Shown: positions 1 through 32,068 of the stretch, in pieces
Layout of the letters: every line of letters starts with the position of its first letter
Position numbering within the stretch: the stretch's first letter is position 1
Origin: Thermodesulfovibrionales bacterium
Lineage (GTDB): Bacteria; Nitrospirota; Thermodesulfovibrionia; Thermodesulfovibrionales; Dissulfurispiraceae
DNA length: 32,068 bases
Assembly: GCA_021129835.1 (NCBI GenBank)
Contig: JAJOKM010000043.1
Span: forward strand, 1 to 32,068
Reading direction: 5' to 3'
Translations under genes and position numbers: made by a program
The notes under the pieces: model-generated
What the model was told of the DNA's origin: nothing
The model's database searches: none
Seen by the model: only the letters and a program-made list of their open reading frames with translations

Positions 1-54
1 GCCTAAAGTATTTAAAGTGCCTAAAGTATTTAAAGTGCCTAAAGTATTTAAAAT
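1..54. repeat. Tandem direct repeat, 3 x 18 nt (GCCTAAAGTATTTAAAGT), cut by the window edge
   Basis: Read directly: nt 1-18 equal 19-36, and 37-54 differs at one base (..AAAAT). There are no spacers between units. Confidence 0.9.
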
Positions 55-58
55 ATTA

Positions 59-250
59 GGTTCTTCTCCAAAAAGTGTAGTTGCCCGCATGGTAGTGTAG
101 CCCTTTATGGGCGTAATTAAATATTAAATTCATCTGTGGGTTGCAGTACAAAGCCCGCTCAAGACGAATTTTCTTGGGTATTTTGGGTTCATATGTTTAC
201 GGGCATAAAGCCCTACACTACCTGATCTCTACTAAATTTGGAGAAGAGCC
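59..250. repeat. 192-bp palindromic ORF-less element. Arms are 59-115 and 198-250, and the arm module recurs at 32016-32068
   Basis: The left arm GGTTCTTCTCCAAA...GGTAGTGTAG-CCCTTTATGGG-CGTA is mirrored by the right arm TACGGGCATAAAGCCCTACACTACC...TTTGGAGAAGAGCC. The reverse complement of 198-250 matches 32016-32068 at 51 of 53 positions. Confidence 0.85.
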
Positions 251-284
251 AACATTATTAAGAGGCTCTTGCAAAAGTCTCTGT

Positions 285-350
285 TTGTCATTTCCGTGAT
301 CCCGCACACTGTCATTCCCGCAGTTTTTTTGAGCGGGAATGACAGTATCC
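285..350. repeat. GTCATTCCCGC-family hairpin repeat (copy C1)
   Basis: There is a perfect 13-bp stem, CTGTCATTCCCGC (309-321) with GCGGGAATGACAG (333-345). The flanking TTGTCATTTCCGTGATCCCGCAC recurs inverted at 13472-13493, and GGATACTGTCATTCCCGCTCAAA recurs at 13310-13332. Confidence 0.85.
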
Positions 351-523: not shown

Positions 524-1345
524 CTACATAGACCTAAGTCTTGCTATTCTCTTTTCGACTGGCGGATGGGTGCTGAAAAGCTTTAAAATACCGCCACCAG
601 AGAGGGGATTCACTATAAACATATGAGAAGTTGCAGGGTTAGCATCAAAGGGCACTTCTTTAGATGATGTGTGGAGTTTTCTAAGGGCACTAGATAGATG
701 CAGAGGAGTGCCGGCTATCTTTGCCCCACCTTCATCTGCATCGTACTCCCTTGAGCGCGATATTGCCGTTTGCACCAACAAGGCAGCTATTGGCCCAACT
801 ATCATTAAAGCAATAGCGACAATTGGATTGTTCCCCCCGCCTCTTCCAGATATCATCGACCATTTTGCCATCTGTGCGATATAACTTATGGATCCTGCAA
901 TTGCGGCCGCAATTGTGCCTACAAGTATATCTCTATGTTTGATATGTGACAGTTCGTGCCCTATAACCCCCTCAAGTTCTTCCTTCGACAGGAGTTTTAT
1001 AATGCCCGTCGTTACAGCAATAGCGCCATTTTCTGGATTTCTTCCTGTCGCAAAGGCATTAGGCTGATCTTGATTGATAATATAAACCCTCGGGACAGGG
1101 ATTTCTGCCTTGTAAGCAAGTCTCTTTACCATGTTGAATAAGCCAGGGGCTTCCGTCTCTATGACTTGCCTAGCGCCATACATCTTCAGAACTATCTTGT
1201 CGCTGAACCAATAGGCAATAAAATTTATGCCAAATGCCATAAGAAGAGCAAATGTCATTCCTCCTCTGCCAGCGAGGATGCCTCCTATTGCTATAAGCAT
1301 TAATGTCAGAGTTATCATCAAGACCGCTGTCTTTAGTCCGTTCAT
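524..1345 (-). CDS. htpX: HtpX-type M48 zinc metalloprotease (membrane protein quality control)
   Basis: It has the HExxH motif in GVIGHELSHIKHRD, N-terminal TM helices, and a C-terminal STHPPVEKRIARL typical of HtpX. The full-length ORF is 273 aa. Confidence 0.92.
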   Translation of the reverse strand: MNGLKTAVLMITLTLMLIAIGGILAGRGGMTFALLMAFGINFIAYWFSDKIVLKMYGARQVIETEAPGLFNMVKRLAYKAEIPVPRVYIINQDQPNAFATGRNPENGAIAVTTGIIKLLSKEELEGVIGHELSHIKHRDILVGTIAAAIAGSISYIAQMAKWSMISGRGGGNNPIVAIALMIVGPIAALLVQTAISRSREYDADEGGAKIAGTPLHLSSALRKLHTSSKEVPFDANPATSHMFIVNPLSGGGILKLFSTHPPVEKRIARLRSM

Positions 1346-13224: not shown

Positions 13225-13309
13225 TAAATCCCCTCTTGATAAGCTCATCATGTTTCGCATTTTTGACTTAACACAGGGAGGGCATAACAGGCCGAAATAA
13301 ATATTTAAA

Positions 13310-13493
13310 GGATACTGTCATTCCCGCTCAAAGGACTGCGGGGTAGGCAATTTAAATATCAAATATCAAAATGCAAAATGTTTTCAAGAAAATAATAATG
13401 ATGTTTTTTAAAAACTTTTTACGACTTCATCAATTTTGATATTTAAATTTTGATTTTTGATATTATTTAAGGTGCGGGACCGTGGAAATGACA
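13310..13493. repeat. GTCATTCCCGC-family copy C2 interrupted by a nested ~125-bp AT-rich element
   Basis: Positions 13310-13343 and 13472-13493 together match the reverse complement of 285-350. The intervening DNA is bounded by perfect 15-bp inverted repeats, AATTTAAATATCAAA (13349-13363) and TTTGATATTTAAATT (13435-13449). Confidence 0.8.
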
Positions 13494-14507
13494 ATCAGAG
13501 ACTTTTACAAGAGAAGCTCTTATCATGAAAAGTTATTAATATCAGTTATTTACAAAATACCCTCCTGTGTCAAGTGTGCGCTAAGGTCAGCCCCTGGCGG
13601 GAGAGGGTTAGGGGGAGGGGGAGTTAAACTATTACTTGTAACCTTATTCTTGATATTTTTAATCTCAGCGTCTTCGTCAGTTTATGCCGGGGCATTCTCT
13701 TTTTGTGAGGACAATACAGTAATTGGATTTGCCAGAACCTATAAAAACATCGACGATAGATCTTTGATCGAGATAGCGAGAGAGTTTGGAATTGGTTACA
13801 ATGAGATAGTCGATGCAAATCCAGATCTTTGTTCCTTCGTACCAGGAAAGGGCGTATCTGTCAAGATACCTACATTATGGATATTGCCTGATGTATATTT
13901 AGCGGAAGGTATTGTTATAAACCTTTCCGAAAAGAGGCTTTATCTCTTTTTTGAACAAGGTGGTGTATGGATGGTAAGGACATTTCCTGTTGCAGTAGGC
14001 CGTAAAGGATGGGAAACACCGCTTGGAGACTTCAGGATAATAGAGATACTGGTGGGTCCACCCTGGCATGTGCCTAAATCTATCAGGAAAATAAGACCTT
14101 GGTTGCCGGCGGTAGTGCCGCCAGGGCCGGATAACCCCCTCAGCTCACATGCATTAAGGCTTTGTCTGTGGGTTTATTCAATACATGGAACAAACAGGCC
14201 GTGGAGTATCGGCAGGAGCGTTACTGCTGGATGCGTGAGATTATATCCCGAGGATATCCCGGTGCTCTTTCGACAGGTATCGATCGACACCAGCGTAATA
14301 ATTGTTAGACAACCTATAAAAGTAGGGACAAGAAATGAGAGGGTATATATAGAAGTGCACAGGGATCCATGGAAAAAAGATATAGATTTTTTCAGCAAGG
14401 CAGTAGAGTTGCTGAAAGAGAGGAATCTGCTTGAAAATATAGATACGAAAAAACTCTATAATGCCGTTAAAAGAAAAAGCGGGGTTCCTGTTGTGATCTC
14501 AAAGTGA
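13482..14507 (+). CDS. L,D-transpeptidase (YkuD domain) with LysM domain; start uncertain
   Basis: The YkuD catalytic motif is SIHGTNRPWSIGRSVTAGCVRL. A LysM-like segment is SLIEIAREFGIGYNEIVDANP. The signal or anchor segment is KLLLVTLFLIFLISASSSVYA. The first ~47 codons overlap repeats C2 and B4. Confidence 0.88.
   Translation: MEMTIRDFYKRSSYHEKLLISVIYKIPSCVKCALRSAPGGRGLGGGGVKLLLVTLFLIFLISASSSVYAGAFSFCEDNTVIGFARTYKNIDDRSLIEIAREFGIGYNEIVDANPDLCSFVPGKGVSVKIPTLWILPDVYLAEGIVINLSEKRLYLFFEQGGVWMVRTFPVAVGRKGWETPLGDFRIIEILVGPPWHVPKSIRKIRPWLPAVVPPGPDNPLSSHALRLCLWVYSIHGTNRPWSIGRSVTAGCVRLYPEDIPVLFRQVSIDTSVIIVRQPIKVGTRNERVYIEVHRDPWKKDIDFFSKAVELLKERNLLENIDTKKLYNAVKRKSGVPVVISK
13591..13635 (+). repeat. 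Solo half copy of the B-family element (B4) inside the ldt 5' region
   Basis: CCCCTGGCGGGAGAGGGTTAGGGGGAGGGGGAGTTAAACTATTAC is near-identical to the minus-strand reading of 6283-6325. A G4 motif GGG-AGA-GGG-TTA-GGGGG-A-GGGGG lies at 13599-13621. Confidence 0.8.
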
Positions 14508-21216: not shown

Positions 21217-21276
21217 GCAAGCAAGGTATGAGTTAATGGGTTAAAGGCAGTTTCCAGTTACCCGTTGACAGTCTCC

Positions 21277-21325
21277 AATTTCTAATTTCTAATTTCTAAG
21301 GTATATGCGAACCTTGAACCTTGAG
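21277..21325. repeat. Two short heptamer tandem arrays in the mnmG / HMA-like convergent spacer
   Basis: AATTTCT x3 lies at 21277-21297, and GAACCTT x2 plus GAG lies at 21309-21325. Confidence 0.85.
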
Positions 21326-21327
21326 TT

Positions 21328-21702
21328 TTATATCAGAAGTGTTAGTATCGCTAAAGGAGAGCCCTTCAACGCATTTTCTACAAAGGATCCTAAAACAGCC
21401 CTGCCAACTATCTGCCCTGCCTCTAAGGCAGCCTTCTGCAGATACTCATCTTGTGTCATAGCTCGAGATGCATCAAAATAGCCTCTTCTCTCTAAAACAG
21501 CGACAATGTCATTCTGTTTTACTGCCTTGGGGTTGTAGTTCACAAGAAGGCTACCAGTAATAAGATTTATATCTGTAGTAGCAATCCCTTCTATCGTGCT
21601 CAACGCCATCTTTAGCTCATCGACGGCGATTGCATTATTTTTTATAGCAGGGCTCTTTACTCTCAGCCTTCCTGGGACATTATGAATATAATAGCTCATC
21701 AT
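21328..21702 (-). CDS. HMA-like (ferredoxin-fold) domain protein without a CxxC metal site
   Basis: YYIHNVPGRLRVKSPAIKNN...IEGIATTDINLITGSLLVNYNP resembles HMA2-type domains (PGRLRV motif). The sequence contains no Cys, and the tail is hydrophobic. I place the start at ATG 21702. The track's TTG at 21747 lies in a hairpin loop. Confidence 0.6.
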   Translation of the reverse strand: MMSYYIHNVPGRLRVKSPAIKNNAIAVDELKMALSTIEGIATTDINLITGSLLVNYNPKAVKQNDIVAVLERRGYFDASRAMTQDEYLQKAALEAGQIVGRAVLGSFVENALKGSPLAILTLLI

Positions 21703-32015: not shown

Positions 32016-32068
32016 GGTTCTTCTCCAAATTTAGTAGAGATTAGGTAGTGTAGGGCTTTATGCCCGTA
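32016..32068 (+). repeat. Third copy of the edge module seen at 59-115 and 198-250, cut by the window end
   Basis: GGTTCTTCTCCAAATTTAGTAGAGATTAGGTAGTGTAGGGCTTTATGCCCGTA matches the reverse complement of 198-250 at 51 of 53 positions. Confidence 0.9.

Follow-up and report, generated by a model that had tools for sequence, protein, structure and literature searches.

A probable ISL3-type MITE carrying two REP-like hairpins in a Thermodesulfovibrionales genome

The stretch of DNA analysed here (the window: the whole of contig C4, 32,068 nucleotides) carries close to its start a 192-bp element that very likely represents one copy of a non-coding MITE of the ISL3 type, holding two GTAG-tagged, REP-like hairpins, and thereby a known kind of element. 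Its assignment to the DDE-type ISL3 MITEs, and not to elements moved by Y1/HUH enzymes, is based on ends that match those of an ISL3 IS and on 8-bp target duplications. The hairpins of the left and right arms differ by a swap of base pairs in the stem, and this swap was inherited as one fixed distinction between left and right, not produced by recurrent covariation. The host genome is a MAG of 1.35 Mb (181 contigs, 43% G+C, 90% complete), which is fragmented at repeats. The features of the window are collected in Table 1.

Table 1. Parts of the element in the window and adjoining repeats.
Feature	Position	Strand	Remarks
18-nt tandem array (GCCTAAAGTATTTAAAGT) and linker AAAATATTA	1-58	.	About 3 units, cut by the contig start
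Complete copy of the probable non-coding MITE	59-250	+	192 bp, running from the IRL-side A arm to the IRR-side B arm
A arm	59-115	+	Stem GCCC/GGGC
A-arm terminal repeat GGTTCTTCTCCAAAAAGTGTAGTTGCCCGCAT	59-90	+	Corresponds to the left end (32 nt) of a widespread IS group of the ISL3 family
Hairpin module type 1, GGTAGTGTAG-CCC-TTTAT-GGG-CGTA	91-115	+	Stem GCCC/GGGC, GTAG-tagged, REP-like
Variable spacer between both modules	116-197	.	About 29-31% minority base calls across copies
B arm, inverted	198-250	-	Stem GGGC/GCCC
Hairpin module type 2, GGTAGTGTAG-GGC-TTTAT-GCC-CGTA	198-222	-	Stem GGGC/GCCC, inverted relative to module 1
B-arm terminal repeat GGCTCTTCTCCAAATTTAGTAGAGATCA	223-250	-	Agrees over its first 22 nt with the IRR of that ISL3 IS group
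Second B arm, from another family copy	32016-32068	+	IRR-type tip 32016-32029, type-2 module 32044-32068, stem GGGC/GCCC

The first-pass annotation had described three copies of a short module in the window, and these are found where it placed them. The module pattern GGTAGTGTAGSSSTTTATSSSCGTA matches three times, at 91-115(+), 198-222(-) and 32044-32068(+), against none expected from 100 shuffles, and the tip GGTTCTTCTCCAAA is matched at 59-72(+), 237-250(-) and 32016-32029(+), against 0.08 expected. Not all three copies share the exact 14-mer tip, however, since the tip of the middle copy (GGCTCTTCTCCAAA) has one mismatch to the other two. Each module consists of GGTAGTGTAG, a 4-bp stem, a 5-nt loop and CGTA, and lies directly inside the IS-derived ends, beginning behind nt 32 in A arms and behind nt 28 in B arms. 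The loop and flanks are identical in all three copies, while the stem reads GCCC-TTTAT-GGGC at 59-115 and GGGC-TTTAT-GCCC in the other two; the two flipped and compensated base pairs reported before are thus real. The GTAG tags of modules 1 and 2 face outwards, forming a head-to-head heterodimer. As for the third arm, the family structure identifies 32016-32068 as the IRR-side arm of another copy: its interior points off the contig, which cuts it exactly after CGTA and ends where the copies diverge.

It had also been claimed that, due to the swap, the two arms of the element cannot pair with each other at the swapped positions. This holds for the four positions concerned, which leave 2+2 mismatches in the arm-to-arm duplex, but not for the arms as a whole, as the minimum-energy fold with DNA parameters favours a long arm-to-arm hairpin (-31.7 kcal/mol, z = -4.5) despite these mismatches. 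The fold with RNA parameters retains both local hairpins, so that the folding of the element is ambiguous between the two parameter sets.

The element is small, non-coding and present in many copies. About 50 arms occur in the 1.35-Mb MAG, with around 30 A-type and 24 B-type termini, together with 65-70 hairpin modules, many of them located exactly at contig ends. Eleven elements that are complete or almost so (163-363 bp, typically 192 bp) can be aligned over their full length; they vary in the interior or hold insertions there, with entire blocks of the spacer replaced in sub-families. The copies are located in intergenic DNA. In the window, the only ORFs that overlap the element are spurious ones of 52-63 aa, and positions 1-600 gave no Rfam match at E <= 1. 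The element was not found in 60 genomes of the same family and order, and the module was missing from 400 further genomes of the phylum, in which control searches with the reversed pattern yielded close to zero hits.

Complete copies bear target duplications of 8 bp in their flanks, which match in at least seven positions in five of nine copies. These are perfect (8/8) in the copies on C76 (GAATTGTT), C5 (AGTTTGTG) and C27 (AAAATTAC), and match in 7/8 positions on C22 and C1, with a probability of 0.0006 per copy for a match of at least 7/8 at random genome positions.

The identity of the ends was established by scanning public genome and metagenome collections with the tip plus the adjacent GTAG, which recovered the same ends from several phyla, in 25 contigs of genomes and 41 of metagenomes. 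Nucleotides 1-32 of the A arm and 1-22 of the B arm match the IRL and IRR of a full element (L082:1755-3290) and of four more copies of 1.5-1.7 kb, which encode proteins of 346-402 aa. In L082, a metagenome contig, two inverted matches 1.5 kb apart enclose a 401-aa ORF, whose product contains DDE_Tnp_ISL3 (PF01610, E = 1e-74), HTH_Tnp_ISL3 and Zn_ribbon_ISL3, and matches the NCBIfam model transpos_ISL3 (NF033550, E = 2e-98). The left end (IRL) of this IS group is the side upstream of the transposase gene: in L082, the upstream end (GGTTCTTCTCCAAAAAGTGTAGTTATGCACAG) resembles arm A, and the downstream end (GGTTCTTCTCCAAATTTAGTAG...) resembles arm B. The IRL GGTTCTTCTCCAAAAAGTGTAGTTATCCACAG heads most of the other loci found with these ends. 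Some of these loci are non-coding elements of only 176-296 bp, whose interiors are unrelated and which are mostly flanked by duplications of 7-8/8. The full-length IS copies, however, show flank matches of just 2-6/8, and this counts against the ISL3 reading.

Outside the IS tips, L082:1735-3310 bears an extra 18-nt inverted repeat (GTAGTTGCCTGATTTATC, adjoining GGTTC...), and this IS copy either sits in a palindromic target or possesses longer ends. Unrelated MITE families in other phyla also begin with the ISL3 left end described above, in L022, L025, L027, L039 and L041 (a MAG of candidate division NPL-UPA2) as well as in L047-L059 (Ga0180009 contigs). One of these families, 296 bp in length, has a long GC-rich hairpin directly behind the IRL, and another has an interior made of tandem ATTGCAAATTTAGC.

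An origin from the IS6/IS26 family is extremely improbable. That family also has GG... tips and 8-bp duplications, and the tip GGTTCTTCTCCAAA presumably resembles IS6-family ends. Nevertheless, DDE_Tnp_IS240 (PF13610) has no match in the host genome, all the full-length elements with these ends measure 1.5-1.7 kb, and the only protein among them that was classified, that of L082, is an ISL3 transposase. The IS6/IS26 origin was ruled out on these grounds, namely the absence of PF13610 and the ISL3 transposases encoded by elements with these ends.

A close parallel to the ISL3-type MITE is known from Microcystis aeruginosa, where a MITE of 187 nt with GGCTCTTCG ends has ISL3 partners and 8-nt direct repeats (PMC11448079). 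Both elements are short and non-coding (187-192 bp), have many copies and 8-nt direct repeats, and hold an interior able to form stem-loops; in both, imperfect terminal inverted repeats begin with GG(C/T)TCTTC and match the ends of ISL3 transposase genes (PMC11448079). Unlike the Microcystis element, the one described here has an interior consisting of a head-to-head pair of GTAG-tagged hairpins, belongs to a host from the Thermodesulfovibrionales, and has no intact partner IS assembled in its genome (PMC11448079).

By the most plausible scheme, an ISL3 DDE transposase supplied in trans would bind the duplex tips, cut the target with a stagger of 8 bp and insert the element there, chiefly at intergenic sites rich in AT. 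An intact ISL3 transposase gene with matching ends (GGTTCTTCTCCAAAAAGTGTAG / GGYTCTTCTCCAAATTTAGTAG) was not found in the assembled, 90%-complete genome, which holds only remnants. Decayed ISL3 transposase genes are present on C31, C79 and C95, that of C31 (843-1838) being N-terminally truncated and frameshifted. Since the assembled genome contains only such decayed genes, the MITE family may have lost its mobility. Another ISL3 lineage, likewise decayed and with the end GGTTCTTCTCYCATTTTCTACRGTA, is represented at C31:843-1838, C95:4646 and C22:14282.

The hairpin modules inside the ISL3 ends have the features of REP sequences: a palindrome preceded by a conserved GTAG, high copy number, extragenic location and inverted dimers. 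A genome-wide census of GTAG-hairpins yielded three abundant types—GCCC-TTTAT-GGGC (type 1, 36 copies), GGGC-TTTAT-GCCC (type 2, 23 copies) and GGGG-CTTGT-CCCC (type 3, at least 6 copies)—all of which pair and are preceded by the invariant GGTAGTGTAG tag, all other GTAG-hairpins of the genome being singletons. Types 1 and 2 form the head-to-head dimers inside the MITE, with a spacer of about 80 nt, and types 1 and 3 form tight inverted dimers on C3, C60, C106, C22, C69 and C2. Those on C3, C106 and C60 stand alone, with no ISL3 tip within 110 nt. In the MITE and in the tight dimers alike, the tags point outwards and the partner stems are unlike (1 with 2, 1 with 3).

GTAG-tagged REPs have been described as head-to-head dimers with conserved spacers of 20-100 bp, some of them set inside longer palindromes, and their sub-families differ by complementary stem residues and form heterodimers with different stems (PMC3733652). 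The head-to-head arrangement of unlike stems is, therefore, already described for REP dimers. The likeness to these dimers, BIMEs and REPINs extends to the conserved unpaired GTAG located 5' of a G+C-rich palindrome, to the complementary stem sub-families and unlike-stem heterodimers in head-to-head orientation, and to the embedding of some dimers in longer palindromes (PMC3733652; PMC8266576). The modules differ from described GTAG REPs in their stems, of 4 bp (6 with a bulge) compared to 6-13 bp, and in that no module-flanked RAYT gene was found; moreover, most copies are enclosed by ISL3 terminal repeats and also have 8-bp target duplications, which REPs lack (PMC3733652; PMC8266576).

The first-pass annotation had suggested recognition of the hairpin by a Y1 or HUH transposase and a search for the corresponding genes. 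Such genes were found, but they are not cognate to the modules, and recognition by these enzymes is not supported: the terminal inverted repeats are identical to the ends of an ISL3 DDE IS, and the target duplications measure 8 bp. The only sizeable Y1_Tnp fragment of the genome lies at C174:46-361(-), is frameshifted and is cut by the contig start; short N-terminal Y1 fragments occur also on C117 and C22. Upstream of the C174 gene lies GGTGTCAAGTCTCAA, related to the repeats GGGGTCAAACCTAA and AGGGTCAGGTCTA (see below), with no modules beside the gene, and no solved structure in the PDB matches the fragment by sequence. Members of this Y1 family in relatives from the same family and order have around 290-340 aa, and inverted repeats similar to GGGGTCAAACCTAA or AGGGTCAGGTCTA lie on both sides of each gene (L098-L102).

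It is accordingly very unlikely that the modules are true REPs or REPINs, spread through single-stranded DNA by a Y1/HUH transposase of the RAYT (TnpAREP) type, with the ISL3-like tips being incidental. The hallmarks of such sequences are present, from the 5' GTAG and the short G+C-rich palindrome to the high copy number, the extragenic location and the head-to-head heterodimers (PMC3733652; PMC8266576), and stand-alone type-1/type-3 dimers exist away from any ISL3 tip. The genome also has a Y1_Tnp fragment whose sole NCBIfam hit is REP_Tyr_transpos, yet this hit scores 21.8 bits against a cut-off of 80, and the gene is both frameshifted and truncated. The 8-bp duplications and the DDE-type inverted repeats of complete elements are not produced by HUH transposition, and the stems are shorter than those of described GTAG REPs. 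Furthermore, the same Y1 family occurs in 22 of 41 relatives, often in multiple copies, but none of those genomes has a module, and the intact Y1 copies are flanked by inverted repeats of their own instead of GTAG hairpins. Among the Y1 genes of the host genome, no RAYT gene flanked by cognate modules was found.

A RAYT/REPtron was rejected because the Y1 genes carry their own inverted repeats and occur in relatives without any modules. The pattern of this Y1 family is that of the 'TIRYT' (PMC3733652), not of the REPtron: as in TIRYT genes, short inverted repeats of the GGGGWSAS type (GGGGTCAAACCTAA) lie on both sides of the lineage's Y1 genes, but these repeats are unrelated to the modules or the tips and belong to a different element in the same genomes (PMC3733652). 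An IS200/IS605-type element was also considered. The ends of these elements, moved by a Y1 HUH TnpA, likewise have small subterminal hairpins near each end that could be read as single-stranded DNA, but IS200/IS605 elements have no terminal inverted repeats and no target duplication, and both their hairpins lie on the same strand. An IS200/IS605 type was rejected because the element described here differs in three features: its tips are inverted repeats of 22-32 nt, its target duplications measure 8 bp, and its modules are inverted relative to each other. For the stand-alone dimers, movement by a Y1 enzyme is conceivable.

The same census shows how the stem swap has to be understood. All 27 A arms hold the type-1 stem, and the B arms hold the type-2 stem (n = 23), apart from one B arm with type 3; as one stem is found in the A arms and the other in the B arms, the swap is one inherited difference. 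Across 19 distinct module variants, 97.4% of the cells are paired, which is reached by 0 of 500 shuffles, and three of the four stem pairs carry changes on both sides. This signal, nonetheless, traces to three sequence types, that is, to at most about three pair-flip events. Within the types, stem changes amount to two uncompensated breaks (C45 and C141) and one change from G-C to G-T (C148), with no compensated doubles. The claim of covariation among copies, which was to fail if uncompensated changes proved as frequent as compensated ones, is not borne out, as the changes within types are only uncompensated. When the two arms of a transposon family differ by a compensated change, this amounts to a single event, whatever the copy number. 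The broader proposal of selection on the small hairpin retains part of its basis, in that the three types all pair and the variation of the module is low, but it loses the swap as an instance of recurrent covariation.

Template switching in hairpins is an established mutational mechanism, and the complementary stem difference might have arisen without selection, through intrastrand template switching that transferred two changes from one side of a quasi-palindrome to the opposite side, and then have spread with the element. This origin agrees with the existence of only three stem types, with their few pair-flip events, and with the uncompensated nature of all the changes within types. It is still quite unlikely, as it leaves unexplained both the low variation of the whole 25-nt module, tag and loop included (about 20-30 times below that of the spacer), and the constant pairing of unlike stems in inverted partners, 1/2 in the MITE and 1/3 in the tight dimers.

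The 25-nt module varies by 0.9% in A arms and 1.5% in B arms, compared to 3.3% and 2.7% for the tips, 9.8% and 4.0% for the inner repeat, and 28.8% and 31.3% for the spacer (module versus spacer, p < 1e-30). The hairpin is likely to be under some constraint, given that the third stem type (GGGG/CCCC) also pairs and that the module is as conserved as the tips. The most likely reading is that the hairpin would act in cis within the element, being recognised by its structure in single-stranded DNA or RNA, and that copies without the module would have failed to propagate. This high conservation could also result from gene conversion or from selection at the host level; the cis role is favoured over the latter because the tips, which have no host function, are equally conserved.

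Specifically, the modules could be passengers under host selection, maintained intact at every site once inserted and acting in host RNA or DNA, for example in 3'-end protection, termination or protein binding, with no part in transposition. Their conservation far above that of the spacer, even within a sub-family, would suit such a role, as would the intergenic location of the copies and the persistence of both local hairpins in the RNA fold; the REP literature proposes functions of this kind and notes frequent G-T pairs in REP stems (PMC3733652). Against it, the equal conservation of the transposon tips fits selection for transposition competence better, no T-run follows the hairpins, there is no Rfam match, and the same module is found behind the same IRL in a different MITE of another organism. 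A host role of the modules is, in consequence, considered unlikely.

The latter MITE, on the marine-sediment contig L054, carries an identical 32-nt segment (module 1 plus ATTAAAT) behind the same IRL and is otherwise unrelated. At L054:1049-1226, the IRL is followed by 20 more nucleotides of IS-internal sequence, then by the identical type-1 module and a different interior. As this junction differs from that of the family described here, the module was joined to the IS end at two different junctions. The full-length IS copies recovered lack the hairpin module, and it is therefore no general requirement of the IS group. In a variant of the MITE, at C126:3167-3449 and C112:4011-4297, a heptad-repeat hairpin element has a copy of the 24-nt type-2 module on either side, and it looks as if this insertion had duplicated the module.

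Alternatively, the element might be a chimera, in which a REP-type head-to-head hairpin dimer was captured between ISL3 ends and the module now serves as a structure-specific cis requirement or booster for DDE transposition, or else a repeat moved by two unrelated enzyme classes. Such a history appears quite improbable. If it were true, the obligatory unlike stems (1/2, 1/3) would be a design rule favouring two local hairpins over one long palindrome.

The surroundings of the window copy were reconstructed from eight sister assemblies, found via the HtpX gene (window 524-1345, minus strand; identical in all eight) and two other flanking genes. At this locus, each sister assembly of sufficient length contains the element, with 0-2 SNPs; empty sites were not found, as all eight carry the copy, and two other loci are occupied as well. 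The contig extension that had been proposed did not succeed on the right side but did so on the left, where four of the eight assemblies read past the window start into an array of 3-5 18-mer units and then into an outer A arm with a type-1 module. The 192-bp element is hence the inner part of a composite: IRL, module 1, 18-mer array, IRL, module 1, spacer, module 2, IRR. This composite structure explains why the copy in the window, with a flank match of only 3/8, lacks a clean 8-bp duplication. The same 18-mer array adjoins the A tip in the copies on C2, C12 and C33.

The outer A arm of the sister assemblies is identical to the end of contig C9 (21248-21305). Since the end of C9 equals the sequence preceding the window start in these assemblies, C9 adjoins C4. 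On C9 itself, the outer A arm runs into 18-mers at 21248-21341. The 18-nt array (AAAGTGCCTAAAGTATTT), located downstream of htpX, varies from about 3 to 5 units between near-identical sister assemblies (L103-L106), and it also forms the interior of other elements, on C141, C149, C24 and C9. Two inverted repeat families are found beside the MITE: window 266-307 pairs with 13472-13513 (88%), about 13 kb apart, and 328-359 pairs with 13301-13332 (97%). Both (266-359; 13301-13513) are built on GTCATTCCCGC...GCGGGAATGAC hairpins.

For this genome, the MITE family accounts for the repeat that breaks the assembly at dozens of contig ends, and its analysis links contig C9 to the start of the contig of the window. 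It also corrects an attractive but misleading covariation argument. The wider interest is modest and lies in one ISL3 end that has seeded unrelated MITE families in several phyla, and in REP-like GTAG hairpins located directly inside ISL3 ends, with a conservation as strong as that of the transposase-binding tips. Should ISL3-mediated movement turn out to need the hairpin, this would represent a new cis requirement for a poorly studied IS family.
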